Positions 1-64,000 of a stretch of 64,000 nucleotides of DNA are shown here, one piece after another. The DNA lies in the NCBI GenBank assembly GCA_008632985.1, contig QPGO01000001.1, positions 652,404-716,403 of the forward strand. The letters run 5' to 3'. Source of the stretch: Psammoneis japonica. Taxonomy: Eukaryota. The position numbers and the translations under genes are program-made. Positions within the stretch are counted from its first letter, which is position 1. Each line of letters begins with the position of its first letter. The notes under the pieces were generated by a model that was given only the letters and a program-made list of their open reading frames with translations, made no database searches and was not told where the DNA came from.

Positions 1-3000
1 CAGCACGCATGCACGGGAAAGGGCAAGACCATTCATTCCTGCGGCCAGCTCGAATGGTGCAAACAGGATGTCAACGATCGCTCTGTCAAGGTGCCCAACG
101 GCTTGCAACGCATTGCCACCCCTGATGACCATGTCATCCCAATTGACATCAAGGGTGGCCTGCCTCATGTTGCCATGTGACCTTGCACTGATGCTGAATG
201 GGACACCCTGCCCCATGTCATCCTTGCCGGTGATGACACATGGGATCCTTCCATCCTCAATCACTCTGTCGCTGATGACGATCAGTGGTGCGACGCGATC
301 TCTGACCTGCAGGACCATCCCACTGCCAACCTGCTTGACGAATGCGGCAACCACCGTCATCGTGTCGTTGTCAACAAGACCATCATGTCCGCCTCCTTGT
401 CTGCCAATCACGCGTCCGCCCTCGATGACCATGTCATTCCGAACAACGACGTGTTCTACGAGTGTCATCTGCACGCGATTGACCCCAAGGACGATGACGT
501 TCCGCCCCCGGAGCGCACTGTGCAGCCCAAGGACCCCCCCTTCGAGTCTCTTCGGCCTTGCTTTGGCTTCCAACCTGCCAATGCGGTTCGTCGCACTTTC
601 GACTGCACCGCGCAGTGCGCCCACATGCCCACCGGTGCACACCTTGGGAAGGCCCACAAATCGCCCAACCCCACCCTTAATGTGCACCGCCGCAACGAGC
701 CTGTCGCCACTGACGCCGTTTGTGCCGACACCCCGGCCGTCGACTCTGGTTGCACCAGCGCCCAACTGTTTGTTGGCACCGAGTCTACCGTCACTGACGT
801 CTACGGCACCAAAACGGACAAAGAGTTTGTCAACACACTCGAGGATCAGATCCGTGAGCCTGGTGCTCCATCCAAACTCATTGGCGACCGTGCTCAAGTT
901 GAGATCAGCAACAAGGTGCTCGGGATCCTGCGAGCCCTCTTTGTCTCCAGCTGGCAAAGTGAGCCTCACCAGCAACACCAAAACTTTGCTGAACGTTGAC
1001 ACCAGACCGTGAAGCGCATGGCGAACACTGTCATGGATCGTTTTGGTTCTCCTGCCCACACATGGCTGCTGGCGCTCATGTGCGTGTGCTTCATGCTCAA
1101 CCACACAGTGTCCCCACGTCTCCACTGGCGCACGCCCCTCGAGACTCTCACTGGCTCCACCCCGGACATCAGCCCATTGCTTCGCTTTCACTGGTGGGAA
1201 CCCGCGCACTTCCACCTTGATGACTCCGATTGGCCATCTGAATCCTGTGAGTTGCGTGGACGCTTTGTTGGCATTGCTGAGCACGTTGGCCACCAGATGA
1301 CCTTCAAGATTCTCTCTGATGAGACTCAGAAGATCCTCTGCCGGTCCAACGTACAATCCGCTGCCACCAATCCTGCCGTTCAAAACCTGCGTCTTGATCC
1401 TCCTGATGGGGAGCCACCTGAGCCCATCATCAAATCTCGCCATGACGACAACCCCGTCGATTCACCTGATGGGGAGATCAGGACACCCAAGATGCCAGTT
1501 TTTGATCCGCAAGACATCATTGGACGCACCTTCTTCATGCAGCCACAAGAGGATGGACAACGCCACAGAGCTCGCATTGTCAAGGCCGTCGAAGACCACG
1601 AATGGAAAGTGAGCGGCAATCCCGAGCTCACTGAGTTCTTCTGCTCTGTCAACAACGACGAATGCGAGGAAGTCCTGGCCTGCAATGACATCATGAATCA
1701 AATTGAGCAAGAAGACGAAGACACTGCTGTTTGGAAATTTTGACGCATTGTGTCACACGAAGGACCTCTGAAGCCTCATGACCCAACCTGGAAAGGCTCA
1801 AGCTACAACATTGTGCTTGAATGGGAAAGTGGGGAGATCACGTCCGAGCCTCTTGCCATCATTGCCAAGGACAACCCTGTCACCTGCGCCATCCATGCAT
1901 GAGAGAACGGACTTCTCGACACTGATGGCTGGAAGCAGTTCCGCGCCATCGCGAGGCGCCAGAAGAAGCTGTTCTGCATGGCCAACCAAGCCAAGCTTCG
2001 CTCCTTCCGCACTGCACCTCGCTGCAAGCACGGATGCGAAGTTCCCCAGAACTGCAAACATGCCATGTCACCAGACGAACGCAACGGCAACCGCAAATGG
2101 GGAGACGCAACTAATCTCGAGATGGACCAACTCAAGGAATACGAAGTCTTCCATGACTGCGGGCCCTCCAAGTCTTCCACTCCTCCTGCGGGACACAAGG
2201 AGATCCGAGTGCACCCAGTGTGCGACGTGAAACACGACGGTCGCCACAAGGCACGACTCGCAGCCGATGGGCACCTCACGGTCGCACCCATCAACAGTGT
2301 CCACTCTGGAGTGGTCTCCCTCCGTGGCCTTCGGCTGATGATTTTCCTGGCCGAACTCAACGAGTTGGAGACATGGGCCACCGACATTGGCAATGCCCAC
2401 CTTGAAGCCACCACCAAGGAGAAGCTCTACATTGCAGCTGGACCTGAATTTGGCAAACTCGAAGGCCACATCCTTGTCATCCACAAGGCCCTGTGTGGAC
2501 TGCGCAGCTCCGGCCTCCGCTGGCACGAGCGCTTCGCTGACTGCCTGCGAGCTGAAGGCTTCTTCCCCTGCCGCGCCGAACCCGACATTTGGAGGCGCAG
2601 CAACGGCGACCACTGCGAATGCATTGCCGTTTATGTGGATGACCTCGCCATTGCCATGAAGGACCCTCAATCTTTTGTTGATGCTCTCACGGAAAAGCAC
2701 AAGTTCAAGCTCAAGGGTGCGGGACCGATTGAGTTCCATCTGGGCTGCGACTTTTCACAGGATCCCAACGGCACCTTGTGCCTGTCTCTGCGCAAGCACA
2801 TTGAGCGCATGGTCGACAGCTGCACCCAACTGTTTGGGGAGAAACCTGCCACCAACGCCCTGTCACCTCTGGAGAAGGGTGACCACACCAAACTGGACAC
2901 TTCCGAACTGCTGGGGCCCGATGGCATTCACAAGTTCCAGTCTCTTGTTGGCTCACTCCAATGGGCAGTGTCCCTTGGTCGAATTGACGTTGCCACGGCC

Positions 3001-3784
3001 GTCATGTCACTCTCTGGCTTCCGAGCTGTGCCCCGTCAAGGCCACTTGGATCGTGCCAAACGCGTCTGTGGGTGCCTCTCCAAGATGTCGCACGGAAGAG
3101 CCCGACCATTCGGATCTCCCTGCTCCGGCCTGTGAATGGATGCATTCTGTGTGCGGCGAAGCAGAAGAGATGATCCCGAAGGACGCTCCACCACCCCTTG
3201 GCAAGTTCGTCACTGCCACCCACTGCGTTGATGCAAACTTGCACCATTGCATGCTCACCGGACGCTTTGTCATGGGAATGCTCCACTTCCTCAACAAATT
3301 CCCGGCTGATTGGTTCTCTAAGAAGCAAGCCACCATGGAGACTGCAACCTGTGGGTCTGAATTTGTTGCCGCAAGGACTTGTGTTGAGCAGATTGTCAAC
3401 CTGTGCATCACCCTGCACTGCCTTGGCGTCCCGATCCATGACATCAGTTGCATGTTCGGTGACAACAAGTCGGTTGTAGACAGTGCCACCATCCCGCACT
3501 CCAAGTTACACAAGCGACACACCGCACTGTCGTTTCACTGTGTGCGTGAGGCAATTGCCTCTGGTCACCTTGAGCTCCACTTCATCGAAGGCTCCCGCAA
3601 CCCTGCTGACATTCTCAGCAAGCATTGGGGTTGCTCCCAAGTCTGGGACCTTCTCCGCCCCCTCATGTTCTGGAACTTCATTCCATCCAAAGTCGAATCT
3701 GTTTCTGTGGCTCCTCAAGCAAACTGGGGAGTGACAGGATTTGAACAGGATTCAGGTGCGCGCGAAATGTCGCGTGCTGTTTAG
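1..3784 (+). pseudogene. Copia pol pseudogene (integrase-RT-RNase H)
   Basis: In-frame TGA stops at 997, 1741 and 1900 where E2 has CGA. A 20-bp frameshifting deletion near 3087 relative to E2. Conserved Tyr replaced by Cys/His (e.g. KALCGL). Confidence 0.93.
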
Positions 3785-4006
3785 TTCACCGCGCACAGTT
3801 TTGTGTGCTTCAGTTCCACGCGTTCGGCGTGATGCAGTTTGCTTTCGAGCCACAAGGCTCACAAGAATGACAACAGCAGCCCGATCACACCGACTCACAC
3901 GTCTTTCGGCTCCTGTGACGGTCTCTGAGCGGAGACTCATCTGCTGTTTAGACAGCAGCAAGGAGTTGTTGTTTGAACTCTTGCCATTTGCCTTCAATTT
4001 CTGTCA
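3732..4006 (+). repeat. 3' LTR of E1 (275 bp)
   Basis: TGACAG...CTGTCA termini; homologous to 17893-18168 and 24675-24950. Confidence 0.95.
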
Positions 4007-4559: not shown

Positions 4560-5860
4560 TTTTTACAAGCAAAAGGAAGTTTTCTAAATGTTCACAAGTT
4601 GGATCGAAAGTGGTCAAAATCACTTCACCTTATAAAAAGTGTTCATGAGTTGGATCGAAAGTGGACAAAATCACTTCCCCTTTTAAAAGGTCATTGCAAG
4701 TTGGATCAAAATCACTTCCTCTCATAAAAAGTTTTTGCAAGCAGGGTCAAAAGCGGTCAAAATCACTTCCCCTTGCAAATGTTTTCATGGGTCAGAATGA
4801 AAGTGGATGAACCCACTTCCCCTTGTAAAAAGGTTTTACAAGTCAGTTTGAAGGTGGTCAAAATCACTTCCCCTTTGCAAAAGTTTTTGTGAGTGAGTTG
4901 GATCGAAAGTGGATGAGTCCACTTCCCCTTGTGTGAGGTGTTTGTGAGTCAGATGGAAAGTGGTCAAAATCACTTCCCCTTGCAAAAGTTTTTAAAGTCG
5001 AATTGAAAGTGGTCGAAATCACTTCCCCTCACAAAAGTTTTTACAAGCCGGTTCGAAAGTGGTCGAAATCACTTCCCCTCATGCAAAGTGTTTGCAAGCA
5101 GGAACGAAAGTGGACGAGTCCACTTCTCATAAAAAGGTTTCACAGGTTGGATCAAAAATGGTCAAAATCATTTCCCCTTGTAAAAGTCATTGCAAGTCGG
5201 GTCGAAAGTGGATGGGTCCACTTGCCCTCACATGAAGTGTTTGCAAGTCAGATTGAAAGTGGTCAAAATCACTTCCCCTTGTAAAAGTTTTTATGAGCAG
5301 GATCAAAAGCGGTCAAAATCACTTCCCCTTGTGAATGTTTTTGTGAGTTGGAATGAAAGTGGTTGAAATCACTCATCCCCACAAAAGGTTTTGTGAGCAG
5401 GGTCAAAAGCTGTCAAAATCACTTCCCCTTGTGAATGTTTTTGCAAGTTGGAATGAAAGCAGACGAGTCCACTTCCCCTTGTAAAAAGGTTTTTCAAGTC
5501 GGATCAAAAGTGGTCAAAATCACTTCCCCTTGTGGGTTGGATCGAAAGTTTTTACAAGTCAGATTGAAAGTTGATGAATCCACTTCCCCTCATGTGAAGT
5601 GTTCGCAAGTGATTGAAATCACTTCTCCTCATAAAAGTTTTTCTAAAAATTTGCAAGTTGGATCAAAAGTGGTCAACATCACTTCCCCTCATAAAAATTT
5701 TTTACAAGTCGGATTGAAAGTGGAAGGATCCAGCAGTTCACCTTGCAAAAAATGTTTGTGAGTCAGATCGAAAGTGGTTGAAATCACTTCCCCTTGTAAA
5801 AGTGTTTGCAGGTCAGAATGAAAGAGGACGAATCCACTTCCCCTTGTGAAAATTTGTCAA
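4560..5860. repeat. Minisatellite, ~51-bp unit, about 24-25 degenerate copies
   Basis: Recurrent GAAAGTGGTCAAAATCACTTCCCCTTGTAAAAG and the variant GAAAGTGGATGAGTCCACTTCCCC at ~51-bp spacing. Confidence 0.93.
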
Positions 5861-9000: not shown

Positions 9001-9172
9001 GTGTCATCTCATGATGATGCCCCTTCCGGCTGGTCCCAAGAAGCTTCTGCCCCACTTGACGGTGTGCTGGAAGTGTGGGTCAGCCGGCACCGGCTTGGCT
9101 GGCAAAGGAGTGACAGCACTTTAAATGTAGATCTGGATTTTTTTTTACAGAAGCAGAATTGGTTGCAAACTC

Positions 9173-9600
9173 ATGGATGTTGAGAGCAATTTTGAATGGA
9201 CCGTTCATGTCACGAAGCATGCGCGACGTTGCAGATGCACAAAATGGCAAACAATTTGTCGCGACAAGTGTGGTTGGGACATTGTTGATCACCACAAATG
9301 CATGGGCTGCAGCGCTGTTTTAGAAAAACATGGCAGTGTTCCAGGAGGCAAACATGACGGTGGAAAACCAGGTCCTGCCGCTTGTGACATTAACTCGGTT
9401 GCTCCTGTTGCACTGTTTGCGGCAGCTGCACTTCCTCAGAAAATGATCGAGTTCTGTGGAGAAGCTGGGGTTGCCCATCCAGCAAGATCAATGCTGCATC
9501 AAATGCGCAATGATGCAAAGGACCAAATTCTGACATTGTCCCCAGAGACTTTGCAGAAGAATCGAGCGGCTTCTGGAGTCAGTTGCTTTGTGAGTCCCGC
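9173..9600 (+). pseudogene. Possible DDE transposase N-terminal fragment (Mutator-like/Kolobok-type Zn finger plus helical region)
   Basis: CRC...HKCMGC, then DINSVAPVALFAAAA...MIEFCGEAGVAHP...MLHQMRNDAKDQILTLS; resemblance judged by eye only. Confidence 0.4.
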
Positions 9601-10645
9601 GGTTGAAAGCAGTTGTTTGGATGACTGGACTTGTTTTTACATTGTTGCTGGATTCAATTTCTCTGCTGCACATGCCCTCAATGAAGCCTGAAGTTAGCAG
9701 AGACCTGTCATCATCCTCACATGGTGTTTCAGGATGAAAACCAAGCTCGCGGGGTGTTGAAGGCAATGCTGGCGGGTGTCGGCCTGGGTCTGCGGCTGTC
9801 GCTGTCATCGTCTTATGGAAAATGTCAGCCTCTGGCAACTGCCACAGTGCTGGTTGTTTCAACACAGCTCTGCACCATGCATTTGCGGTCTTGACAATTT
9901 GCTTCTGCTTGTTGCAATTGGCCTGAGTGGCCTTGGTGGTTTGCCGTGCCGGCCCTTCCATGGGAACAACATTCTCATTGTCATGATGTGTGTTGGGCTC
10001 ACTCATGATGACGGTGTGATGATGAAGTCCTTGCTGCAAACAAGAACAAAACAGAAAGGCAACATGCAAGCAACAGCAAAGCATGACAAGGTGTGAAGTC
10101 TCAAAAATTAACACAGCGTGAACAGCAATGCATGAGCCTTGCTGCACGAGGCAAGGCATGATGAAACAAATCAGAAATTTCAATGAAAATTCTCACCATC
10201 AGCTGCCCATGTGAGCCTGTGCAATCTTGAGCTTGTCACATGCCTCACACCATGATGTGAGATGTTCCATTGAGAGCACACTGCAAAGCAACTCAGAAAC
10301 AACCGCATTTTTGAAATCGGCAAAACGCCATTGTCCGTGTTGTTTTGAGCCGCAAGCCAGAAAACAGTCCCAAAAGTTGTTCTGCAGGGCAAAATGCACT
10401 GAATCTACACAGATTTGGGCTGTGCCAGGCCATGTAGAAAATGAACGGGCCAAGAACTGTGGCAGGCGCATTGTCCAAAACTTCGAGCATGATCACAGAC
10501 ACATGCACTACAAACTTGGCCATTCATTTTATCTCAAAGACAAATGTGTGCATCAACCAGAGTGCAAACTGCAGAGCTCACATGCAGAATTCTATGGGGC
10601 AAATGTCACAAAAAGTCCCACCTGGGACTGGAACCCATCAAGCTG

Positions 10646-12870
10646 TCAACGCCATGGAAGGAACGCGTCTTTCCCTCCCCAAGCCTTGGCGGCATTGCTG
10701 GAGATGCTTTTCTCCTCACCGTTGGAGTTGTTGGACCATTCTGACTGAACAGACATGCTCTTGTTGTCAGACCCTTTTTGGGTGCCGCATGTGCCATCCT
10801 CTTTGTCTGGGTTCTGAGTGCATTTTCCAATGACAGCATCCTTGAGTTGAAATGCCAGGGTGGTCAAGTTGCAGATTTTGTCATCGGCCATTCGCAGCTT
10901 CTGCTTGATGGTCTCTGTTGTTGCTGCAGTTGCAGTGGAGGTAACTGACAAGTTGTTCTCCTCATCAATGTGATTCTTTTCCTTTGGTTTCTTTTTCTGT
11001 TTCTGTTTGAGTGGAATGTGTGCAGCCTTGCCTTTTTGTGCACTCCAGGCTGAGGCCATCACATCCTCATCCATGCTGCCTTCCCCTGGCATGGCTGGGT
11101 TGCTGGGATTTTCTGGTGCTTCTGGCAAGTTCTCCATTGGTTTGCTGTCCTTCAGTGATGTGGACGTCCTCTTGAGATTTTCAAAGTTGCAGCCATCATC
11201 CTCAAAGTCTTTGAGCATGAGATTGGCCCCAGGATGAGCGGCCTTGTGCTTCTCTTCACTGCATCCGGCTTCCTCCATTTTGGCAACATGTGATGGAAGA
11301 AAGAACCTTTCCATGTTCTTGTTGCATTTGCAGTGCAAGTTAGAAGAAGTGTCCCAAAGGGATGGCTGACTCACTCCAGCTCTCTAGGTGGGACCTCGCA
11401 CTGCTGCACTGTGACGTCAACAGTTTTTTTGATCACGTCACATGTCGGGCACGCACATTTCTACGTGCTCACATTCTACGAAATTGTTTCATGCTCCCTG
11501 TTTTGCGAAGCCAAAGGCTTTCTATTTTCAACATTTGTGAGAGTGAAAATGCACTGGGCATGTTCTTCAATGTCTGTAGAACACACCCGGGAAAACTGTT
11601 GATGATGTGCTCCAAGCATGAAGGAGGAGATGCGTTCGTAAAATTGCCTCTTTTTCTGTTGGCGATCATTTGTGTTTTCATTGCACAGTGTAAATTTGCT
11701 GTGGAGCTCACACGCAGAATTCTGCAGGCCCAATGTCACATGGAGTCCCACCCAGGACTGGAACCCATCGGCTTCAGACTCAACTTGAGGGTGGCAGATG
11801 GCAACAACCTTGCCTCCCCTGGACTTTGGATGTGTTCTGACTTCCATGTGTTGAGGGACCTGGGGTTTGTTGGGCAGTTTGATCTCCATTGTCATCTCAC
11901 AAAGTGTCAATCCCGACTTCTGATTGATGACATCCCATGCCTGCACGTTGTTGAGTGTGAGAGTCTTTGCATGCTTCAAATGAGCTTGTTTTGCCTGATC
12001 ACTCCTTTTTCCACTGGGGTCAGTTTCTGTGGAGCTTGTGCATTGTGAGCATTTGGGCATGAGTCTGGTGGATGTCTTGAGTGGGCAGTTTGTGTTGGAT
12101 TTTGCAAACATCTTCTGGAGCACAGGCCAAGCTTCATCGGCATCATTGGAGTTGATGTTGATGCAGCAGGCTTTGGGCTGGGGATGTTCTTCCATTGCAT
12201 TGGCTGGTTTGGTTGCTTTCTCAGCTTGTGGCTCTGCCGGCTTGCCCAGTTGCTTGCCGATCTTTTTCTCCAGCCTGGCTGGGTTGATCTCATCTGACAT
12301 CATCATCAGCCACCTGCAGGTCTTGGCGCACTTGTTGCCCTGCAGAACTTTGGGCTTGAGGAATGCATTGAATGAGTCCTTGAGGGTGAACCTGATGGCC
12401 TCAACCAGTTCTTTGGGTTGGATGTTGATTCCCTGGCGCATGTCAACCCAGTTGTCTCTTTCCACATTCAGCCTCAGACAGTGGAGATGAGTGTCAATTT
12501 GTGCAAAAGGGAGCTTCTGGAATTGGGTCTTGAATGTGCCATCTTTCTGGGTGATGGGTCCATCTTTTGCATCACCCATCCAGGTTGAAACTGCAACACT
12601 GTCTCCGGTTGGTTTGCACTTGTGGTCGATGATTGTTCCAAATTTCCTGCCTGGCGTCTTTTCTGCATTTTCTTCTTTGTTCTTCTTGGTGACCTTGGAT
12701 GGCTTGAAAGTGAAGCAAATGAAGTGTTTGGTGGTTGTTGGGAGCAATGGAGGGAGTGACGGCAGCATTGACAGAGGCGATGCTGGAGGGAGTGGCTGCC
12801 CCGCTCCTTCAGCATTGATTGTGGAAGGGCCAGGTTGTCTTGCAACAAATGACCATTCACAATGACCATT
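10646..12870 (-). pseudogene. Decayed ORF, probably ORF1 of a diatom non-LTR retrotransposon, interrupted by a MITE
   Basis: ORFs 11476-12768 and 10646-11374 flank the MITE at 11368-11769. Motifs ...CPLKTSTRLMP...LTLCEMTMEI resemble diatom LINE ORF1. TpA-depleted. Confidence 0.5.
11368..11769 (-). mobile_element. GAC-family MITE, subfamily B, intermediate age
   Basis: TIRs; TSD GGCT at 11364-11367 and 11770-11773; homologous to 26227-26622. Confidence 0.9.

Positions 12871-13140: not shown

Positions 13141-13197
<57 letters not shown>
13141..13197. repeat. (CA)n microsatellite, about 28 units
   Basis: Directly visible. Confidence 0.98.
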
Positions 13198-49494: not shown

Positions 49495-49517
49495 TCAATG
49501 CAACATCTCCGGCAATC

Positions 49518-50438
49518 AATTTTGGGTGTCGCCACATGCACCCAGAATCGCAGTGGCTGTCCATCCATGCCACCTCCCACACAAGCCGAGGTTTGCCTGT
49601 TCATGCCAGCCAACAAAAACGAGACGTAGAACAAGCACCAGAATGCACACACATGACTGTTGTTTTTGTTGTTTGCTTTCATTGCAGAGTGCATGATCAA
49701 GACAGGTCCATTGTGTCCAACATTGAAGCAAGCCATTGTCATCATTGATCATTCTTGACATGTCAGAGGCAAGTTTGACGTTCAAGCCAAGAAAAGAGTG
49801 CTGCAAGTCTTGCGGTGTCAACTTGAGGGATTGTGATGTCGTCAAGCTCAAACCGTGCAGGCACAACTTGTGTGAAAGCTGTGTGATCCATCTGTTGGCA
49901 GTTGATCAAATGAAAGTCCATTTGTCATGCTCATGTGGAGCAAGCATTGAAAGCCACATTGTGGAAAAACACGTGTCGACACAGTCGCCCTGTTCGTTGA
50001 CGCGTTGCGACGCTTGAAGGTCTGTTGGAGATGCTTGCTGGCTGTCCTTCCAATGATCCTGATCTGGTTTTATCAAATCAAGCAGAACATCTTCCAGTGT
50101 GACACACGCCTTCATGGATCTCACCCCGGTCAACAAGCAGTGCAGCATTGCGTTGGATGAAAGTGGTGGAAGCGGCGCACCTCGGATGATCGAAGCCACG
50201 CCAACAGTGTTTCCATTGGTTCTCTGCCACTGTTTCCTGTTGGTGCTGGATGAGGTGCAACAAAGGAGGCCGCACTCTGATGGTTGCGCATGGGTCACAG
50301 AGGTGTCGTTGTCTCCGAACGAGCCGCCATGGTCAGCACAATTCCAGCGGGGGGTGCCAAAAATGTGATGCTCGGGCGGGAGGTGGTGTGGACGGACGGC
50401 CACTGCGATTCTGGGTGCGTGTGGTGACACCCAATTTT
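49518..50438. mobile_element. Non-autonomous TIR element (~60-bp TIRs, 9-bp TSD; MULE-like) carrying a RING-finger-like fragment
   Basis: TIR 49518-49578 versus 50378-50438; flanks ccggcaatc and caggcaatc; internal CKSC...PCRHNLCESC...CSC. Confidence 0.7.
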
Positions 50439-52377: not shown

Positions 52378-53193
52378 ATGGCAATGCAATTTGTTCGTTC
52401 GCCCTCGTTTGTTGCCTTGGTGCAACGAAGCAGCGCCACTCGAATTTTGGCCGTGGTGGTGCCGCCGCCAACAAACGGTAGGAGTGTGATGGTTCCGCCT
52501 ACATCAATCACTCATCCGCATTATTTGGTAGGGACGCGGCACCTTGCATCGAAATCGAAAAAAAACAAAGGCAAAGGAGGAGGTGGAGGCAAAGATTTCT
52601 CCATCAAGTTTGTGTTTGGCAATAATGATGAGCATGATGATGAGTATGTTGTTGACGAAACAATAAAGTTTTCTGCTTCTGCGAATCTCAAAGAGATTCA
52701 GACCCGTCTTGCGGAAGAGTTCGGACTCGAAAAGGAAGAGTTGGATACCCTTGAGTATAAAGACAGTGATGGAGAGTGGAAGGATCTCTCTGATCCTTCC
52801 AAGGAGCTTGCCGGAAAAAAGAATGTCCCTGTGCGCTTCCCCTATGATTATAACGAAGAGGAGGACTACTACGACGACGACGGCATCAACTACGACAATG
52901 ACAATTTCGAAGGAGCCTACGGTGGCATCGGAGATAGAGTTCGGGAGATGGTGAATGTTCTCAAAGAGGAAGGCTACACGAATGAAGGACAGAATCGTCT
53001 TAGAGCAAAGGAAGGAACGGTGGTGGACACCAAGGAGTATGTAATGGCAGCTGCAGAAAAGGAACCCGATCTACAGAACGTGCTTGTAAACAAGATTGGA
53101 GCGCTTGACCATATTGTCATGGCCATCCATTTCCCTTTTCTCTGGAAGGATGACAAAGAAAATGCCGTGGCAAAGCCCGAAGAAGAGGAGTAG
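52378..53193 (+). CDS. Acidic hypothetical protein, 271 aa, with possible mitochondrial presequence and PB1/ubiquitin-like domain
   Basis: N-terminus rich in Arg/Ser and free of acidic residues, ending RHLASK. LEYKDSDGEW resembles the PB1 acidic motif. Tyr-rich with normal TpA. Confidence 0.75.
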   Translation: MAMQFVRSPSFVALVQRSSATRILAVVVPPPTNGRSVMVPPTSITHPHYLVGTRHLASKSKKNKGKGGGGGKDFSIKFVFGNNDEHDDEYVVDETIKFSASANLKEIQTRLAEEFGLEKEELDTLEYKDSDGEWKDLSDPSKELAGKKNVPVRFPYDYNEEEDYYDDDGINYDNDNFEGAYGGIGDRVREMVNVLKEEGYTNEGQNRLRAKEGTVVDTKEYVMAAAEKEPDLQNVLVNKIGALDHIVMAIHFPFLWKDDKENAVAKPEEEE

Positions 53194-53711
53194 CACAGAA
53201 CCGCAGCGGTATTAGCCCTGGAGCTAAGGTACACCGCTGCAATTGTCATAGTTAGTGATGAGGCATCTGTTATGACCCCTGAAATGTCTAGCACAGCTCT
53301 ACTCTAGAGAACAATGTTGCCTCCGTATGCCAAATTTTTTAAGCAAGACAACGTTGTTGTTGTTCAATCGATACGCAGCCTTACTACGCACAATCATATC
53401 AATCTTTCGCTCACACCGTAAAGCCGCCAGGAATAAGCCACTGTTCAATCATTTACTGTACGAATGCTGCCTCGTGCAATACATTTGGATCGGGTATGCT
53501 GCAACAAGAAGGCTACACCAATAAGTACGGCAGCACAAAACAATCTATTAATGCGAATCATAATTCATTTTTACACACCGCATTAGAAGTGGACTTCATG
53601 CAGTGGACACAGTTCACAAGTTCTATATTTAAAGCCATGGAAGATGTAATCATAATTGAAGGCGTTTGCATCCGGCGATATCAGCCAGCACTTCAGCATA
53701 GGGTGTCAATT

Positions 53712-54998
53712 TTATTCTCTAGTCAATTCAGTAAGTTCCAGCTCTTCACTGGCACGATGTGAGATTAGAGCCTTATGCTCTTGCTGCAGGCAGGTTGTGT
53801 CGTGACCAGTCATGGTTGGCATGTTCGGGTGATACCATCGCTTGACAAGCTTGAACATCACCCACAGTACTACTACCGTGGTCACGGCAAGCGTCCCCAC
53901 AAAGCGCTGAAATGCGCGGCTTGGCGGCAAGGGAATGTCCCGTCCATGACCCCATCTCGCCCTAAAGTCGAAATGGAGGCGTCTACCTTCGGTCCATTCT
54001 ATAGGATGAATCCAAAACTTGTGAACATGAGGTGCCACAACAACGCATGGAGCATCGCAAAGGAATGCTCCGAGCACAAAGAAACTGGATTTACCCCCAA
54101 TGACAACATCGCTCTCCGAGAGCGTGTCCAGTGCTTCTCTCCAAAGGGTAGCATTCAGATGAAGCACGGCCTGCGGAAAAGCTGAGGTAAATTCTTCAAA
54201 TTCGGCTGCGTCCCCTTCCGAGAGGAAATGAACAACCACGCGTCGCCTTTGTGGACCCCGCCACAACCACCAGTATTCTTTGTGCTCTGATGAAAGGATT
54301 TGGTAATGTTTCTGGACGCTACGGACCAGGTCATGCAGAGACCCCATGTTTCTGTTGTTGGGATGTTCCACGTCGCCGGTTGCCGTGTCTCCCCAGCGGA
54401 AATGGGCGCTTATCCATATTTCATCCTCCGGTTTGCATAAATAATGCAGTCCGGCTGGTAAATTATTGTCTTGTGCATGCTTGCAACGGGACGAACGGAC
54501 CTTCTGATAGCGTTCCCGGAAATAGTGGTTGAAGGTGCAAAGATTCCAATCGGGTATTGAGTCGTCATCGTTGTTCAATACAAGGACAGTACGCTGTGAA
54601 ACATTGAGTGCTAAACGAAGGAATTCATGTTTGCCACCCACCAGCGAACGGCAAAGCTCCGAAATGGGCGGAAGCATCTCTTTGGATACACTTCGAAATT
54701 CCATTGACACTTTTTCATCATCACTGTCATGCCGCAACCGCTGCATGTCCTCCACCATGCAGTCATTCTTTTGGAGACCGAAAAAGGCAGCGTTGTTCAA
54801 ACGCTGTGGGTGATCGTGAGAATTCTCCAATCTGCCCACCCACGTTGCCCGCAGTGCATCAGCGAGGAGGAGACCACGTCGATAATGAGGAAACACCGAA
54901 CCGATCCCTTCATGGTGTGTGTTGGCCTGCCAGACGTATGGTCCGGTTCTGCACCTTCCATTATTTTTTCCTGATGCAGGTTGCACGAGGACCGCCAT
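53712..54998 (-). CDS. Putative glycosyltransferase of the alpha-2/alpha-6/O-fucosyltransferase superfamily with C-terminal TM segment
   Basis: ISAHFRWGD (motif I), VHFLSEG (motif II), DTLSESDVVIGGKSSF (motif III); hydrophobic FVGTLAVTTVVVLWVMF. Confidence 0.7.
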   Translation of the reverse strand: MAVLVQPASGKNNGRCRTGPYVWQANTHHEGIGSVFPHYRRGLLLADALRATWVGRLENSHDHPQRLNNAAFFGLQKNDCMVEDMQRLRHDSDDEKVSMEFRSVSKEMLPPISELCRSLVGGKHEFLRLALNVSQRTVLVLNNDDDSIPDWNLCTFNHYFRERYQKVRSSRCKHAQDNNLPAGLHYLCKPEDEIWISAHFRWGDTATGDVEHPNNRNMGSLHDLVRSVQKHYQILSSEHKEYWWLWRGPQRRRVVVHFLSEGDAAEFEEFTSAFPQAVLHLNATLWREALDTLSESDVVIGGKSSFFVLGAFLCDAPCVVVAPHVHKFWIHPIEWTEGRRLHFDFRARWGHGRDIPLPPSRAFQRFVGTLAVTTVVVLWVMFKLVKRWYHPNMPTMTGHDTTCLQQEHKALISHRASEELELTELTRE

Positions 54999-55989
54999 TT
55001 TGAAAGAACAAGCATGAACGCGGCGGGATAATACTCAGCACATGAGTACGGGACAAAAGGTAGGTACACCATGGCATGTGGAGCAAACCAAATGGGAAAT
55101 GGGCCGTCAGGGAAGGTTCGCAGGGGGGGATTGGGGGGGGGGGTGCCATGGGGTCAGGAAGGGAGGACGGCGGGTGCGTGTTCTCGCTCGAGGTGAATGA
55201 ACTGTGAAGATCTGGCCATCCATCATGTTGTGTTGTGTCGAGGGGTTGCAATGTCGGGGCATCATGTGTTGTGTCAAGGGGTTGCATTGTCGGGGTGGGA
55301 TGCTCTCCACAACACTCGACTTTGGTCACAATTCTCGTTTTGCAATCATGGCAAGAGAAGGTTGACTGTTCTTGCCCTCTCGCTGTGCTGAGCTTCACTC
55401 ATTTTGGGACAAAAGGAGTGGAAGGGACCGGCAGCATGCGGAGAACTCACCCACACTTTGCCAGAGCAAGCTGCGGCATGTGAACACCACCTTGTCTGTG
55501 CAGCTGCACTGGAGCAGAAAGCAGCTCTCACCTGATGCACCCAAGTGGTGCAGAGGGTGCAAGTGGCACAAGGGTTTGCTGTCACAAAGAACTCCGCACA
55601 CTGTGAAAACTGGTGCGCTCTGTGCTCTTCTCTGACAGCAAAGTGTGACTGACTTGGTCATGGGGTTTGTGCAGGGCCAGTGCACACCAGCGGTGCCAGT
55701 TGGTTGGCGCACTGCAATCACAATGAATCATGGTGGCACACGCACCTCCAAGGGGCTTGTGGAACAAATGCGACGACATTTGCACCTCCCCTTCCATGCA
55801 AGACCTGTTGTCACATGCCTTGCAGGGTTGGTTTCATGAAGACTTGCTTTGCTCTGACCATGTTCACCATGGCATCACAGAGGTTTTTTGATCTCAAGAT
55901 GAAATTGGTTGGCGCCATGTCTTCAGTGGGTGTTTTTCTTCCTTGTGGAATGAGGCTAAAAAATGTCACATTTGACATCCTCTGGCTTG

Positions 55990-56300: not shown

Positions 56301-57869
56301 CCGAGAGGCCTGGCATCTGTGGCTGTTTGAGGCACACCCGAGGGTGGCGCCGATCTTGGCTGATTGTTGCATGCTCCTGCTGCACCTGGTGTGCTGGGAG
56401 TGTGGGCCAGCTTGTTGCCAGAGTTGCAGAGTGGAAGTGCAGCAGCACTTAAAATCAGACTTTGGGTTTTGTTTTGAAACAAATGTGCTTCAAGTGTGGA
56501 AGAGTTGGCAAGTTCACAAAAATTGTCATGATTTCTGTTGGCAATCATCGATGCATTCATCACCTGCCAGCTCCAGCACAGAGCTCAGATGCAGAACTCT
56601 GTGTGCACCCAGTGTGTCACAAGGAGTTTTGCCCAGGGCTGGAACACACCATGTCAAGCACAGCCTTTGGCAAGCACTGCCAGCACAGGTCAGCAGACAG
56701 CTGACGAGCAAGCACTGCACAAGAACACCAGCTGGAGAACTTGCTGTTCAGTTGTTGTTTGACTGGATGATGCTGACTGTGCCCCTCTCAATTTGTGCTT
56801 GTGTGAGAACAAGGCTAGCCCGGTTGGCAGATGGGGCTGACAAGCAAGCAGCGCAGAAGAGTGCATGCATTGCACACCGTGCAGATGGGTGTGCAAAGTG
56901 GCGCCAGTTTCAGAAGTCAGCCACTGGTCTTCTTTTGTGACGTGTTTTCATCCTGCTTCACAGGTGATGACACTCATGTGCTTTTTTGTGCTGGAGCAAA
57001 TTTGATGGCCTTCTCCCAATTGTTTGTTGCTTCTTTCCTCAGATCTGCTTGTGTTTTGAATTGCCGGGCATCACTCTCGTTGGTTGGATGGTGTGCACAA
57101 GTGGGCAAAGCACTGTCGTGAAAGGGGCTTCTTTTGGTGAGTGAGAGTGAAGGCTGAAAGCAACCACACCAAATTGCTGTGTTTCAGGCACATTTGAGAG
57201 GCTGCTGTTTTGGCCGATGTTTCTTTCATTGCACCCAACTGTTTTTTAAAGAGTGCGTGTCTGTTTTTTGTCTCTTTGCACACTTGAGTGTGGCAGTGTG
57301 TGGCCTCTCTGTGCAGCATTCACAGTGCCCCCCCCCCCCCCCTCCCTCTCCATTGTGAGTCCATGTGTTGACGTTCTTCGCATGCGCTCGCACGCACCGG
57401 AAGGTCTCCTCATGGACTCTTGCGGAAGTCAGACGGGTGGTTTGTTGCGATGCCTCCGGAATTCCCGCATGTTTCCACATGTGCAAAAAACTTTTCTACA
57501 GAGAATTCTGCATGAAATGCACCAGGAGGGCATGGCAACAAATCGCCTGCATGTGACCCTGGTGCATCGTCCGTCTTACTTCCGCGAGAGTCTATGAGGA
57601 GACTTCGGGTGTGCAGGACAACGGTCGACGCATAGAATTACGATGGAGAGTGCCCCCCGCGCCGCCCCCCTGATTGTGAATGTCCGTCCAACCTCCCGCG
57701 CGTGCGTGTGCAAAGATCCAAGATACGGTGTGGTAAAAAATAGATCGCAGTAGCGGCTACCGGTAGTCTACGGTACCCGATACCCGATCCGCTTGCCCCT
57801 TGCCCCTTGCCCATAGACTCTGCTATTCCAGCCACTGCTGTTTTTGTAGTAGCTCCGTTGTGTTTTTGA

Positions 57870-58746
57870 ATGAAGCACGTCTTCTTGTCTCTTCTTTTGT
57901 TCCTTTTGATTGTTCAACCCGTTGAAAGCATGGCGAACAAAGTTTGTGCAGTCTTTGGATACGGTCCAGGTCTGGGTGCCGCTGTCGCTCGCAAGTGGTC
58001 CAAAGAAGGATTCAGTGTGGCCATCATGTCAAGAACCCTCGATAAGGTTAAGGTCTGTATATATTGATCGAACGACGGACACGGCGCCGTAGAATATGAA
58101 CCGTTCTTGAAAAGATTATTGTCGATAGACTCGTCATCTGTCATTCATTTGTGCTTTGTGTGAACATCTTTCTCCATACAAATAGGCCGCCGAATCTGAA
58201 ATTGCAAATTCCAAAGGCTACGCTTGTGATGTAACCAAAGAAGAGGATGTCAAGACTACCGTTTCGTCCATTGAAAAGGATTTGGGTCCGATTGAATGCT
58301 TGATTTACAACGCAGGAAACGGCGTGTGGAAGAGCTGGGATAAGATTCCAGTGGCAGATTTTGAAAAGGGCTTTCAAACCAATGTCTCTGGCTTGTTGGT
58401 TGCTACGCAACAGATTGTGCCCAAAATGTTGGAACGGGGCAATGGCGGCACGGTTCTCATTACGGGAGCGACAGCATCCTTGCGTGGCAAACCCTTTACG
58501 GCTGGATTTGCGCCAATGAAGGGAGCGCAACGTCTTTTTGCCCAGTCCTTAGCCCGGGATTTGGGACCCAAAGGCGTTCATGTCGGATACTTTATCATTG
58601 ATGGGGGTGTCGGGACTTTCGAAAGCGGCGATGATTCCAAACTCAATCCCGACCATGTAGCAGATACTTACTGGCATGTGGCCACGCAACCAAAGAGTTG
58701 CTGGAGTTTCGAAACCGAAGTGCGTCCAAGTGTGGAGAACTGGTAG
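57870..58746 (+). CDS. Short-chain dehydrogenase/reductase, two exons (57870 or 57930-58052; 58186-58746)
   Basis: GYGPGLG Rossmann motif, YNAG, TGATAS, FAPMK in place of YxxxK. The GT..AG intron 58053-58185 restores the frame. Confidence 0.92.
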
Positions 58747-61569
58747 GATTTTATCATTGACGCCGATGCCTGTACGTCCTGCAATGACATTGAAAGAACG
58801 ATGTTGCATTTGTAGGAATTGTATTAGCTAGCCTTGCAGTGCTCTCTAGACACTAGCCTTGCTCCTTCTCTTGTGGGTTTATTTTACAGCAGTTGCATCC
58901 TCCCATCACAATGTTTTTCATTTTCTTTGAATGCCAGATGCAGATACCGAATGGCGTGTTACTTCTAGATGTAGAGACAGTCGCTTGATTCCTGGGGCAA
59001 AAGAACAGAAAGCGAAGCCAGAAGCATCCCAACGAGCATCTGCAGGATATCCTGAAACCCAGTCTATGTTGGACACCCCGCATTGCACAAACACACATCA
59101 TCAGCACATCTCTACCCTCAACCCCACTCAAGTTCTGCCTGTCCAACAGTTGTCCACCTCCCGAAAAGCCAACTTTCGAAAGCCTTGCAACTCTTGGGAG
59201 TCAACGAACGTGTCATGGACAGACAGTGCTCTGCTCGCTCTCGCTCGCCTCGCTGTCATCGCATGACCACAGATTGCATTCTTGTGGCTCCTGCAGTGAG
59301 ATGTTGCGTTGACAGACAATGGTGAGCTCAGCAGTCATTGAGAACTAACAACAATGTCACCATGTTTGATGTTGCAAGTTCCAAGAAGGTTGACAGTTTT
59401 GCCATGTGCCAACAAGAGAACGGAAGTTTTCGCGTTTCTCAGGGAAAAGTGGGGCGCTCAGATTACAAAATCAACAAAAAGAGCAAAAAATGATGAAAGT
59501 TTGTGTGCCGTGGTCAACTGCATTTGACTGTCACAAGAAACACAATTGCAGCACACAAAGGAGGCTTGTCCAGCATTGGCATTGTGCCACCACATCAAGA
59601 AACCTTCCAATGTGCTGTCACAAAAATCCACTGCACTGGTCATCCGCTCAAACTTCTCAAAAGCCGCTGATCCATCAAAAGTTGATCTCCACTGCTGTGA
59701 GTGCAGCACTCTGACTGCTGATGGCTCTCTAGACAGCTCTGAATGGCATCATGGACTCCACAGGGCTCCTTGTTAAATGGCTTCTTTGATGGTGGTGTTG
59801 GCAGCATGTCATGCAAAAAAATGACGGTGCTGCAATGAAAACAACTTGATTTGTCATTTTGCCCCTCAGCAACCTCTTGCAATGATGGGTGCGCTGATGT
59901 GTTGCATGAGATGATCATCATGCTGCTGCATTGTGTCAAAACTCCAGTCATGTGCTGGAGCCAGATCCGCCCATCACATCCTGCTGTGCTCAAGAAAACA
60001 AAACGGCAATTGTGAGAGCTTTTGCCCCCCCCCCCCCCCCCCCCATGTGATTTAATCATGTCATCCATTGCCCCAAGTTTGTCATTGAGGAAGATGAGGC
60101 AAATTGCTTTGTTGTCTCCTCCGCCTCTCACATCTTGATGAAAACACCAGTCTCAGCTCTGAATCCTTGGACAAACAACAGCTCTTCATGGCAGCTCTGC
60201 ACAGCAACAGAACACCAGTTGATTTTGGGTTCCAGAATGCTGGCACAACTCCAGTTGACAAATCATGTTGTCTCCATCTCCAGCACAACTTGAGACATCT
60301 TCTGGACACCATCCAGTGCAAAGGTGGCCTTGCTGGTGGGTTGGCAGTTGGACATGCCAGCACTGCTTTGAGGGTCACTTGGTCATGCATGTTTCACCTT
60401 TGTGCTGCCAGTGCATCAGGGACAATGCCAATGTCCTTGCATGGCTTCAGGAATGGCTTGTTGTTGCCTTCACTCCTTTTGTTGTGATTGCAGCTTCTGC
60501 TTTGTGAATGACTTCTCATTCAAGGCAAACTCCTTTTGCTCTTGCCATTGCCGCTGCTTTTGCTGCCCATCACACACCTTTTCTTGATGGGTGCAGAGAA
60601 ACACACCAAAGCGTGTGTGGGCTCTGACAGCTGCACATGGAAAACATGATGGGTGTTGATGGAGCAATGAGGAGAGCTCTGCTTCCCCCACACTCTTTTT
60701 CTTGCGTGCACTTTCAAGAAACTGTTGTTGCCGGAAAACGACATGCTGTGACTGTGAGCCGACCAAGACCTTCAAAAACACATTGAGCTTGTCACAAGTC
60801 CAAACAAATGGTGTGAATGGATGAAGCAAAGGATGTGGATTTGGATGAAGTGCAAAGCTCCCAAATGGATGCGCTTTTGTGATGACGACAATGTGAAAAA
60901 AATGTCCAAATCCATCACAAACGAAAATTGATCACATGAGATGACAATGCGTTCACCGCTCAAGCTTTCACAAAGCACAAACAACACAAGCAACACTTCA
61001 GTGAGCAAATGAATGGCACAAAATGAGAAAACACAGAAAGAACTCATTTCCACAACATTGTTGACCACTCAGGTGTTGCCCATGCTGCACAGCAGTTGAG
61101 AGTCACGAGTTGAGGAACACAACCATTCACAGCATGTGTGTCAACCAAAGCACCCCAGGAAACCAAACCAATGTGTCAACCTCTTTACAACAATGGCAGA
61201 AAAAGACCCCCCTGCACAAGGCATCATCATCACGATGCATGCCATGGTTAGATGCATCAAAGTAAAACACGCCAATTTGATGCAAAATTGGGACCAGTTG
61301 AGTCCAATCGAATGACTCAACTCTCGTGCTTCACGTGCACGAAGAGAGGGACCCTCACATCCCTTGATTTTGGGCCCCAACCGAGATGCACGTTGTACGT
61401 CATTTTCCTCCCGTGCACACGTGGCCGCATTGCTGGTCCCACCAGCAATGAGCAACAAGCCATGACTTCAACCACAACTGTGTGAGATGGACAGCTGCCA
61501 TTGCTTTGGCATGAATGCACAACAACAAACCAAACACACTGTTGCAACAGCAGTTGAGCAGTTGCAAAC

Positions 61570-63900: not shown

Positions 63901-64000
63901 ACTTGTCAAGCCAAAGAAACAAAATGCTGCTTGAAGCTTTGCAGGTGGTGCAAAAGACAATCAATGGGTGATCCAAGGAAAGTCAAAGGCAGACAACAGA

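Follow-up and report, generated by a model that had tools for sequence, protein, structure and literature searches.

We found that, in a 64-kb stretch of diatom DNA (hereafter the window), nearly all TA steps in transposon-derived DNA have been converted to TG or CA, while the adjoining genes have been spared. The ancestral dinucleotide was TA rather than CG, and the change arose after insertion, in the DNA itself and on both strands, as a process distinct from CpG decay; in old elements the erasure of TpA is nearly complete. We consider it probable that this context-specific hypermutation of transposons is the process known from Bigelowiella natans, and that it is enzymatic, most likely involving adenine deamination. 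The original prediction, made from the sequence of the window without a search of the literature, knew of no description of such a process. In fact a 2026 preprint on this one chlorarachniophyte measured exactly this signature, and it was the only description of TpA-specific hypermutation that we found in the literature. The signature was therefore known before; new here are the diatom host, the transposon targets and the far larger scale.

The dinucleotide composition of the window was examined first as a whole and then in bins. Counted over all 64 kb, TpA occurs 723 times, an observed/expected ratio (o/e) of 0.18, alongside 6492 CA (o/e 1.56), 6218 TG (1.62) and 2129 CG (0.54). The window was divided into 128 bins of 500 bp, and a bin was called depleted if its TpA o/e was below 0.3. 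The 103 depleted bins, amounting to 51.5 kb of repeat-derived DNA, contain 259 TpA (5.0 per kb, o/e 0.08) and have pooled o/e values of 1.64 for CA, 1.71 for TG and 0.46 for CG. The remaining 25 bins, which total 12.5 kb and cover the gene islands and young MITEs, hold 462 TpA, or 37 per kb; their TpA o/e of 0.54 (CG 0.90) against 0.08 in the depleted bins bears out the predicted difference between old repeats and the gene islands and young MITEs. TG and CA counts lie within about 0.18 of symmetry in all 2-kb bins, and the edges of depletion match element ends at 100-bp resolution. Surviving TpA is enriched in TTAA (3.6x) and CTAA (2.7x) and almost never found in ATAT (0.06x). The footprint also passes the cut-offs given in the preprint text for TpA-poor, CpA/TpG-rich DNA (Rho TpA at most 0.43, CpA + TpG at least 1.52). 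Fungal RIP was considered and rejected as the cause, as TpA is destroyed here and the ORF list of the window, in which TA-containing stops are missing, includes frames open for up to 1780 codons.

Four gene islands are spared. The island at 14200-16500 (minus strand) contains a 458-aa ORF (14547-15923; TpA o/e 0.39 in the ORF, 0.55 in its flanks) with 25 homologues. Two of these carry names, one belonging to Epithemia clementina and the other to a Bacillariaceae MAG; they share 46-48% identity with it and are the basis on which the sequence itself points to a probable diatom. At 34500-37800 (plus strand), an island whose read depth is that of single-copy DNA carries an HNH_2 ORF (35364-36461, Pfam PF13391; o/e 0.56, flanks 0.61). 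The island at 52000-55100 has one ORF on each strand (52180-53193, plus; 53712-55034, minus; o/e 0.47 within the ORFs, 0.89 between them), and that at 57400-59000 (plus strand) includes a short-chain dehydrogenase exon (58186-58743, Pfam adh_short, E 2.5e-22; o/e 0.40, flanks 0.66). Taken together, gene-adjoining non-coding flanks have TpA o/e values of 0.55-0.89. The original prediction would be refuted by a like loss of TpA from single-copy neutral DNA; this was checked in the gene flanks, which retain their TpA. Within the 64-kb window, TpA loss is limited to transposon-derived DNA.

Two copies of a copia element allowed the ancestral state to be established. Copy 1 (1-4006, plus strand) is cut in its 5' part by the window start and ends in a 3' LTR at 3732-4006, while copy 2 (17893-24950, plus strand) is a complete single insertion with LTRs at 17893-18169 and 24675-24950 and a 5-bp target site duplication, GGCTT, read directly on both sides; both match Pfam RVT_2. 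Copy 1 is approximately 92% identical to 21373-24950 and contains exactly the 15 TpA that had been estimated by eye (o/e 0.08), yet it is CpG-rich (o/e 0.76). Copy 2 has an open frame at 19385-24727, with a TpA o/e of 0.14 and a CpG o/e of 0.90. The protein encoded from 19385 has 11 Tyr in 1780 aa, in agreement with the earlier count of about 11; this is 0.62%, compared with 3.78% in homologues and with 2.9-5.0% in every one of the 120 homologues listed. At 35 alignment columns with Tyr in at least 80% of 40 homologues, copy 2 has kept Tyr at 6, while 16 now read Cys (TGY) and 10 read His (CAY), whereas all other conserved residue types are retained at 78-100%. The reciprocal differences reported between the copies were exact at all six codons cited: KAL[C/H]GL has TGT at 2494 and CAT at 23417, RP[C/H]FG has TGC at 559 and CAC at 21926, and HWG[C/H] has TGC at 3632 and CAC at 24575. 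The conserved Tyr columns of the 40 homologues, together with TA as a third state in the LTRs, confirm that the ancestor was TAY and that it was hit on either strand.

Methyl-CpG deamination alone could place TG opposite CA if both had descended from an ancestral CG hit on either strand. CpG decay is real in this DNA: the copia pair has 55 CG/TG and 41 CG/CA columns, and C>T changes were seen at 33/127 CpG sites in the MITE comparisons described below. However, in the copia alignment (3562 columns, 262 mismatches, of which 238 are transitions) CA lies opposite TG in 40 of the 44 adjacent double mismatches, and double hits at CpG would predict only about 6 of the 41 TG/CA discordances. The affected codons are those of conserved Tyr (TAY), not Arg (CGY), and TA is seen directly as the third LTR state and in young MITEs. 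CpG deamination is thus scarcely credible as the sole cause. Since the copia copies have lost TpA (o/e 0.08-0.14) and still keep CpG at o/e 0.76-0.90, TpA loss does not track the decay of methylated CpG, and its separation from 5-methylcytosine deamination in the original prediction holds.

It was also conceivable that the elements arrived or evolved TA-poor, for instance through selection against UpA in RNA. In keeping with this, derived states at conserved Tyr codons are concordant between the two copia copies more often than discordant (14 vs 7), and some TA changes may for that reason predate the split of the copies. An intrinsic poverty is nevertheless contradicted by the LTRs of a single insertion, which differ mainly at TA sites, and by MITE copies found in both TA-rich and TA-poor states. 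TpA o/e is 0.58-0.96 in related copia loci from metagenome contigs (n = 28), which are normal in this respect and mark the depletion as host-specific; the 120 homologous proteins are normal as well. A conserved Tyr turned into Cys or His is implausible as a product of selection. Finally, among 40 listed places (286 in all) at which copies elsewhere in the genome differ from the window, 9 have TA in place of the window's CA or TG. We regard this explanation as very unlikely. Whether consensus or active copies already encode Cys or His was checked in part, through the LTRs and these other copies, and the hypermutation reading came through the check. The G+C content of the copia copies, approximately 58% against 41-48% in relatives, exceeds what TpA loss alone should give.

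The LTR pair of copy 2 dates the change relative to insertion. Of the 276 columns compared between the two LTRs, 18 differ, 17 by a transition and one by a transversion. The transitions comprise 14 columns belonging to 9 TA-derived sites and 3 of CpG type. Because both LTRs of one insertion differ mainly at TA-derived sites, the change is post-insertional. When the three LTRs in the window are compared, 2 sites show all of TA, TG and CA. As judged from this pair, TpA would change at roughly two orders of magnitude above the rate of other substitutions and at about ten times that of CpG decay, the first ratio (~100x or more) depending on a single background difference that is neither TA- nor CpG-type. 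ADAR-like editing of retro-element transcripts, later fixed via reverse transcription, would account poorly for LTRs that were identical at integration and diverged afterwards at TA. ADARs prefer G on the 3' side, whereas the 3' preference found here is for a pyrimidine. Both strands are hit, as the 16 Cys and 10 His codons show, and the affected DNA also includes MITEs, a satellite and a Mutator-like remnant. ADARs do share the 5' U preference (10.64898/2026.01.13.699255), but such editing is extremely improbable as the source of the pattern.

MITEs in different states of decay supplied both the intact and the mutated sequences. The young MITE lying in copia copy 2 (18708-19097, plus strand; terminal inverted repeats, 4-bp target site duplication GGGT, TpA o/e 0.71) forms a TA-normal block with sharp edges, at 100-bp resolution, within TA-poor DNA. 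A second young copy (33054-33443, plus strand, TpA o/e 0.80), also TA-normal, is 96.9% identical to it, and 12 columns differ between the two: 9 lie in 7 TA-derived sites, 2 are CpG-type and 1 is a transversion. The process thus continues in young MITE copies. The TA-normal member of a sister subfamily at 26224-26622 (plus strand, o/e 0.97) gives TpA counts per 100 bp of 0,0,0,0 before it, 5,7,8,11 along it and 1,0,0,0 beyond it. Three old copies are depleted. At the 19 TA common to the two young copies, that at 48065-48447 (minus strand, o/e 0.10) has kept 3 and has TG at 8 and CA at 6. In the 26224 subfamily, the copy at 31606-32008 (plus strand, o/e 0.11) has kept 3 of 33 TA and has TG or CA at 23, and that at 11374-11772 (minus strand, o/e 0.26) has kept 5 of 33 and has TG or CA at 20.

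Substitutions were polarised by setting TA-intact against TA-depleted MITE copies in three comparisons, which are not independent, since two of them share a reference copy and possibly ancestry. A>G changes were found at 60/169 TpA (35.5%), 19/216 ApA (8.8%), 16/148 CpA (10.8%) and 7/132 GpA (5.3%), while A>C or A>T occurred at 19/169 TpA. The A>G rate is therefore not equal in all 5' contexts, the excess being specific to a 5' T, in favour of hypermutation. Mutated fractions by trinucleotide were 30/51 for TAC, 14/44 for TAT, 6/31 for TAG and 7/42 for TAA, and at sites reading TAY on one strand and TAR on the other the mutated A lay on the TAY strand in 24 cases against 5. The strands are acted on independently, and 5'-TAY-3' is preferred over 5'-TAR-3'.

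These contexts bear on whether TpA loss could be a by-product of a repair defect in heterochromatin or of error-prone synthesis, with no dedicated system involved. The depleted tracts are also low in CpG (o/e 0.04-0.5 in 1-kb bins), as methylated, silenced chromatin would be, and TpA loss grows with the apparent age of an element. A Pol-eta-type mechanism with its WA hotspot, one of two offered in the original prediction, would however take in ApA, which at 8.8% is not raised and falls between GpA and CpA; few A>T or A>C changes were seen, and copia lost TpA with its CpG largely kept. Moreover, the B. natans process is episodic and its authors see regulation in it (10.64898/2026.01.13.699255). 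We therefore find this alternative improbable.

A further question is which base of the TpA step is the target. As TpA is palindromic, A>G on one strand and T>C on the other are inseparable by sequence, and 5'-TAY for an adenine is 5'-RTA for a thymine, so that every sequence result fits a thymine target equally well. A TET/JBP-type oxygenase or similar enzyme might convert the T of TpA into 5-hydroxymethyl- or 5-formyl-uracil, which mispairs with G to give T>C. A following A is the favoured context of the modified T both for 5-hydroxymethyluracil in dinoflagellates and for base J in kinetoplastids; we know of no thymine modification of this kind in diatoms, and our literature search turned up nothing to indicate one. 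In the one experimental investigation of this signature, adenine deamination was preferred, likewise by inference (10.64898/2026.01.13.699255). A thymine target is, in our view, unlikely, though less so than the other alternatives weighed here.

Depletion extends beyond copia and MITEs. The units of a TpA-poor satellite of approximately 50-bp period (4594-5531, TRF) vary at TA/TG/CA positions; among the 5 units, out of about 18, that a crude search recovered, one column pair had TA, TG and CA and others had TA/TG or CA/TG. A Mutator-like transposase remnant (9131-9688, plus strand, Pfam PF20700, E 3.4e-7; TpA o/e 0.10-0.15 in 1-kb bins) belongs to a DNA transposon and so has no RNA intermediate. 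The most degraded tract, 38001-52000, has lost almost all TpA and CpG, with 37 TpA in 14 kb (o/e 0.04), a CpG o/e of 0.22 and a TG+CA o/e of 1.82; none of its frames of at least 140 aa matched Pfam. At its 5' end, read depth over 37677-39000 is ~61-92 against ~60 for single-copy DNA, making this part effectively single-copy now. Apart from copia RVT_2 and the Mutator-like match, the only Pfam transposon match in the window was a sub-threshold one to P-element (27737-28327). Of the six classes named as affected, copia and MITEs thus stand and P rests at a sub-threshold match, while the LINE, DIRS and Crypton labels found no Pfam support. The ~390-bp MITEs, at a depth ~2000x that of single-copy DNA, exist in TA-rich and TA-poor states, and since high-copy elements can remain TA-rich, copy number alone is no trigger. 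The main target described in the B. natans preprint is single-copy, and targeting of repeats through RIP-like homology sensing finds no support in these observations.

An artefact of assembly or base calling, in which modified transposon bases were systematically misread as G or C, is very unlikely too. Contigs of run X1 repeat the TpA-free single-copy stretches 25071-25595, 27565-27845 and 36541-38839 with 0-1 differences over 270-2299 bases, an agreement that is not fully independent, as the run may be the window's own assembly sample. Support for the assembled bases therefore comes from contigs rather than raw reads. Against misreading, TA-normal MITEs sit within TA-free flanks, one and the same site can be TA, TG or CA depending on the copy, and the catalytic YVDD Tyr codon (TAT) is kept in both copia copies.

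Based on these results, we propose that adenine in a 5'-T-A context would be deaminated to hypoxanthine, which is read as G. The enzyme would be a TadA/ADAT-like or other deaminase drawn to silenced or foreign DNA; among the frames of the window, Pfam gave no match to a deaminase family. Elements would be inactivated through missense change (Tyr to Cys or His, among others), TA-containing signals should be erased too, and, unlike in RIP, TAA and TAG stops would be removed and G+C raised. A function in defence is likewise proposed. That a dedicated 5'-TAY DNA adenine deaminase, homologous to the Bigelowiella system and recruited to silenced or foreign chromatin, is the main means of transposon inactivation in this diatom is a tentative idea that we consider less likely than not. 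If true, it would point to an ancient genome-defence pathway common to stramenopiles and rhizarians, the mirror image of fungal RIP and APOBEC editing and a source of natural DNA adenine deaminases.

A near-saturated signature in retrotransposons, DNA transposons, MITEs and a satellite suggests that TpA hypermutation is more than a peculiarity of a single algal species. SAR protists, whose ecological importance is great, may share it widely, and it may mark a little-known means of disabling invading DNA, the substrate of which includes transposons and not viruses alone; it can shape the composition of tens of kilobases. Natural DNA adenine deamination, if true, would interest the base-editing field. 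There are practical consequences as well. Gene callers are misled by the long spurious ORFs that arise on either strand of TpA-free DNA, which lacks TAA and TAG, and LTR elements dated by divergence will seem far too old if TA and CG sites are left unmasked. For mutation-accumulation work, the predictions are that TAY is preferred on each strand and that rates fall in the order TpA > CpG > rest.

Of the known systems, fungal RIP (in Neurospora and others) resembles the present one in its dense, context-specific, DNA-level transitions of selfish DNA, its dinucleotide footprint and its sparing of genes. Its direction is opposite: RIP changes C to T chiefly at CpA and creates TpA, stop codons and AT-rich DNA, whereas the present process removes TpA, and with it TAA and TAG stops, and raises G+C. 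RID-related DNMT4 genes of unknown function, noted in some diatoms (PMC9998398), offer no more than a lead. Methyl-CpG deamination, which also operates here, likewise yields TpG and CpA and does so in the same tracts, but it starts from another dinucleotide, proceeds at roughly a tenth of the pace in the LTR pair and is uncoupled from TpA loss in the copia copies. TadA/ADAT enzymes, which deaminate adenosine in tRNA, convert A to I, read as G, beside a 5' U or T, the context found here too, and so do the adenine base editors that derive from them. The native substrate context of bacterial TadA is UAC. This matches TAC, the most mutable trinucleotide here (30/51), but the likeness is one of signature. 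In nature these enzymes have tRNA as their substrate; amphioxus ADAT2 is the one case in which natural activity on DNA is reported, according to a citation in the B. natans preprint (10.64898/2026.01.13.699255).

The closest counterpart is found in B. natans, where integrated DNA of giant viruses and virophages undergoes TpA-specific A:T>G:C hypermutation (Mettrop et al., bioRxiv 2026, 10.64898/2026.01.13.699255). According to the preprint's text, it acts on two viral insertions, where 230 of 231 hypermutable-region mutations were A>G or T>C, all at TpA, at ~1000x the baseline rate in mutation-accumulation lines and episodically among lines; the candidate enzyme put forward is ADAT2-like. Both systems turn TpA into TpG or CpA depending on the strand, are confined to non-host DNA, run at orders of magnitude above background, and leave a lasting footprint of lowered TpA and raised CpA and TpG. 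Nearly all changes in the window are A>G or T>C (238/262 copia mismatches and 17/18 LTR differences are transitions), and they are restricted to TpA and confined, within this window, to selfish DNA. By analogy, the process here would be the one measured in the B. natans lines, in whose genome TpA-poor coding sequences are reported to be enriched in transposon Pfam domains. The systems differ in host, a stramenopile diatom here and a rhizarian there, and in target, transposons of several classes and a satellite here and viral insertions there. Erasure is fuller here (o/e 0.04-0.14, compared with a Rho of 0.45 in the B. natans NCLDV region) and denser (approximately 80% of 64 kb, compared with 124 clusters in ~95 Mb). 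The rate is estimated from sequence in the diatom and was measured directly in B. natans, while two points absent from the main Results and Discussion of the preprint, the preference for a pyrimidine on the 3' side and the contrast with CpG decay, are contributed by the diatom elements.

Across the 64 kb of the window, 723 TpA dinucleotides were counted against ~4070 expected (observed/expected, o/e, 0.18), with CA at 1.56, TG at 1.62 and CG at 0.54. The window was cut into 500-bp bins, and those with a TpA o/e below 0.3 were classed as depleted. These 103 bins (51.5 kb) held 259 TpA, a pooled o/e of 0.08 (CA 1.64, TG 1.71, CG 0.46), against 462 TpA and an o/e of 0.54 (CG 0.90) in the remaining 25 bins (12.5 kb). 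The core of the original prediction, a loss of TpA, was thereby borne out, and its count of 15 TpA in the first copia copy (1-4006, + strand) was exact. The oldest tract, 38-52 kb, had lost both TpA (o/e 0.04) and CpG (0.22); the two copia copies stood at 0.08 and 0.14 for TpA, yet had retained CpG at 0.76 and 0.90. Contigs of a public sequencing run (X1) matched the TpA-free single-copy stretches 25071-25595, 27565-27845 and 36541-38839 with 0-1 differences, a match that is not fully independent as X1 is perhaps the source of the window's assembly; an assembly or sequencing artefact is an unlikely cause of the TpA loss.

Since TpA-free DNA is devoid of TAA and TAG stops, very long open frames were found on both strands, and over-prediction by gene callers is to be expected in DNA of this kind. 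There were 43 stop-free frames of at least 200 codons in the 64 kb, including 20042-21835 (-), 1-1461 (-) and 19385-24727 (+); one of the 43, of 598 codons, lies on the strand opposite the copia polyprotein. At 13141-13197, also within TpA-free DNA, a perfect (CA)28 microsatellite may derive from a (TA)n run by conversion.

At conserved tyrosine codons the two copia copies differed reciprocally, exactly as had been reported: TGT at 2494 and CAT at 23417, TGC at 559 and CAC at 21926, TGC at 3632 and CAC at 24575. This pattern alone is ambiguous, because both TA and CG can yield TG opposite CA. Four tests, based on homologous proteins, the LTR pair, a CpG control and other genomic copies, settle the ancestor as TA. 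The predicted scarcity of tyrosine in the polyprotein of the second copia copy (17893-24950, +) was confirmed, with 11 Tyr among 1780 residues in the open frame 19385-24724, and Tyr content was 2.9-5.0% in all 120 homologues listed. Among these were 85 matches longer than 1700 aa, the first 40 of which (63-66% identity to the query) gave 35 columns with Tyr in at least 80% of the homologues. Copy 2 carried Tyr in 6 of the 35, a TGY Cys codon in 16, a CAY His codon in 10 and some other residue in 3; all other conserved residue types in the same alignment were retained at 78-100%. Concordant derived states exceeded discordant ones by 14 to 7 at the Tyr codons of the two copies. The proposal that the elements are intrinsically poor in TA was rejected. 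The Tyr codon of the reverse transcriptase YVDD motif was still TAT in both copies, at 23555 and 2632, though copy 2 had Cys or His in place of 26 of the 35 conserved tyrosines; its retention may be due to chance, sequence context or past selection.

The LTRs of copy 2 (17893-18169 and 24675-24950), flanked on both sides by the 5-bp duplication GGCTT, were identical when the element integrated and are now mismatched at 18 of 276 columns. Fourteen of these differences fell in 9 TA-derived sites, 3 were of CpG type and 1 was a transversion. TG stood opposite CA at 5 of the 9 sites and TA opposite TG or CA at 4; once the LTR of copy 1 (3732-4006) was added as a third sequence, TA, TG and CA were all seen at two sites. 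Deamination of 5mC, by which CG would be the source of both TG and CA, was examined in the CpG columns of the copia pair (CG/CG 180, CG/TG 55, CG/CA 41); from these counts double hits at CpG predict only ~6 of the 41 TG/CA discordances, and 5mC deamination was rejected as the cause of the TpA loss. X1 contigs differed from the window at 286 places, and among the 40 listed, 9 had TA in the other copies against CA or TG in the window, and at 10 the other copies had CG. The Tyr columns, the LTR pair and the other copies thus uphold the earlier proposal of a TA ancestor mutated on either strand.

The specificity of the change was examined in a MITE family present in two states, TA-normal (18708-19097, 33054-33443 and 26224-26622; TpA o/e 0.71-0.97) and depleted (48065-48447, 31606-32008 and 11374-11772; 0.10-0.26). 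With the TA-normal copies as reference for polarisation, the depleted copies retained 3 of 19, 3 of 33 and 5 of 33 TA sites, and had TG or CA at 14, 23 and 20, respectively. When the comparisons were folded to single bases, A>G changes numbered 60/169 after T, 19/216 after A, 16/148 after C and 7/132 after G, and C>T at CpG 33/127. This 5'-context check confirmed specificity for a 5' T. Error-prone repair of the Pol-eta type with its WA hotspot, put forward earlier as a candidate, is rejected because ApA was not elevated. Between the two youngest MITEs, which share 96.9% identity, 12 columns differ, 9 of them in 7 TA-derived sites, 2 of CpG type and 1 a transversion; the process has therefore been active since their very recent transposition. 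By our own arithmetic, the copy 2 LTR pair had changed at ~14 of 22 TA site-copies, ~3 of 36 CpG and 1 of ~400 other bases. TpA change would thus be roughly 10x faster than CpG decay and of the order of 100x above background, the latter with wide uncertainty, as a single event sets the background.

TG and CA did not depart from balance by more than about 0.18 in any 2-kb bin of the window and Tyr was replaced by both Cys and His, so each strand had been mutated. The mutated fraction depended on the 3' base, with 30/51 for TAC, 14/44 for TAT, 6/31 for TAG and 7/42 for TAA, and at sites where TAY on one strand faced TAR, the TAY strand carried the change in 24 cases against 5 (binomial p ~5e-4, the comparisons not being fully independent). 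The TpA surviving in depleted DNA followed this TAY rule, with enrichments of 3.6x for TTAA, 2.7x for CTAA, 1.45x for GTAA, 0.17x for ATAC and 0.06x for ATAT, close to the product of two per-strand terms. Both TpA retained across all three LTRs are TTAG.

Depletion ended sharply at element ends: in successive 100-bp steps around the MITE at 26224-26622, TpA counts were 0, 0, 0, 0 before it, 5, 7, 8, 11 within it and 1, 0, 0, 0 beyond. In the gene islands, spared stretches that retain TpA, the non-coding flanks had a TpA o/e of 0.55-0.89 and the ORFs 0.39-0.56; as the flanks are no poorer in TpA than the ORFs, coding selection fails to explain the island contrast. The predicted sparing of genes and loss in element DNA was supported by these flanks against 0.08 in depleted bins. 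UV photoproducts at TA and GC-biased gene conversion were both rejected, since neither can account for confinement to elements with 100-bp-sharp edges or for 5'-T specificity. In 28 related copia loci from metagenome contigs TpA o/e was normal (0.58-0.96), and the footprint is therefore the host's and not the element family's. Copia G+C was ~58% in the window (19385-24951) against 41-48% in those loci; TpA loss alone would by our estimate add ~3-5 points, and something else also raises it. Summed X1 contig depth was ~65,000-200,000 over copia (19001-25003), ~117,000 over the MITE at 33008-33674 and ~60 over single-copy DNA, which implies copia and MITE copy numbers of ~1000-2000 at no less than 90% likeness. 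Repetition, foreignness and chromatin state are all candidate triggers of the process; MITEs of ~2000-fold depth may yet be rich in TA.

The 458-aa ORF at 14547-15923 (-), in a spared island and without a Pfam domain, had 25 homologues at 35-76% identity, mostly environmental, those with names being only Epithemia clementina and a Bacillariaceae MAG (46-48%), and gave no usable match in the ESM Atlas. None of these homologues matched the query exactly (76% at best), and there was thus no hint of the window's own proteins in the collection searched, where the published proteins of B. natans ought to be present. Another spared island holds, at 35364-36461 (+), a single-copy ORF in which Pfam recognises an HNH_2 endonuclease domain; the proteins of the two islands are not related. 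Pfam also found an SDR in the window frames, an exon of which matches an MMETSP transcript. On these matches the host is probably a diatom.

The original prediction had listed several element classes as affected. Pfam searches of 14 and then 74 long window frames found copia RVT_2 (reverse transcriptase), a Mutator-like fragment at 9131-9688 and a sub-threshold P-element match, and no LINE, DIRS or Crypton; copia and MITE stood, P-element only below threshold, and the other three lacked Pfam support, though their remains may be hidden by heavy decay. Rfam gave no RNA family in the window at gathering thresholds. A satellite of ~50-bp period (~18 units, 66% matches) at 4594-5531 and 5737-5852, adjoining the copia LTR, is TpA-poor with G+C of ~42%; the comparison of its units recovered 5 of ~18 and is illustrative only. 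The TA-normal MITE at 26224-26622 is adjoined at 26627-27092 by a TpA-free 156-bp unit repeated three times in tandem.

The sequence shows that the mutations arise in DNA after insertion and on both strands; they are TpA-specific and TAY-biased, confined to elements and separate from CpG decay. Enzymatic deamination of adenine in a TpA context is probably the underlying reaction. Modification aimed at the thymine of TpA is a possible alternative; TpA is palindromic, and sequence alone cannot separate T from A. For adenine deamination, an enzyme derived from TadA/ADAT would be a natural fit, because U33 universally precedes A34 in tRNA and the context of bacterial TadA is UAC. ADARs prefer a 3' G, the opposite of the 3' preference in the window, and ADAR editing followed by retrotransposition was rejected. 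The mechanism of TpA loss and a function in defence are proposals.

Two further enzyme leads come from published work: a deaminase-SAM-Tudor family found only in stramenopiles (PMC3239186, Iyer et al. 2011) and the DNMT4 genes that many diatoms carry, which are related to RID and have no known function (PMC9998398). RIP itself was rejected as the cause since its direction is opposite to that in the window. Full-text literature searches found no description of TpA hypermutation beyond a 2026 preprint on B. natans, and none in diatoms; a SPLASH paper that mentions both diatoms and hypermutation was unrelated. The signature and targeting set out in the original prediction are thus supported, and its statement that no description was known is superseded by the preprint. 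According to the preprint, two integrated viral regions of B. natans mutate at ~1000x the rate seen elsewhere in its genome, in only some lines, with 230 of 231 changes being A>G or T>C, all at TpA (10.64898/2026.01.13.699255). It also describes 124 TpA-poor, CpA/TpG-rich clusters, an enrichment of transposon domains in TpA-poor coding sequences, and an ADAT2-like deaminase proposed for the signature, with Bn78255 as the B. natans candidate (10.64898/2026.01.13.699255). The combination of diatom and transposon appears to be new, and the window is a further case of this recently described phenomenon, in a new major lineage and with a new target class.
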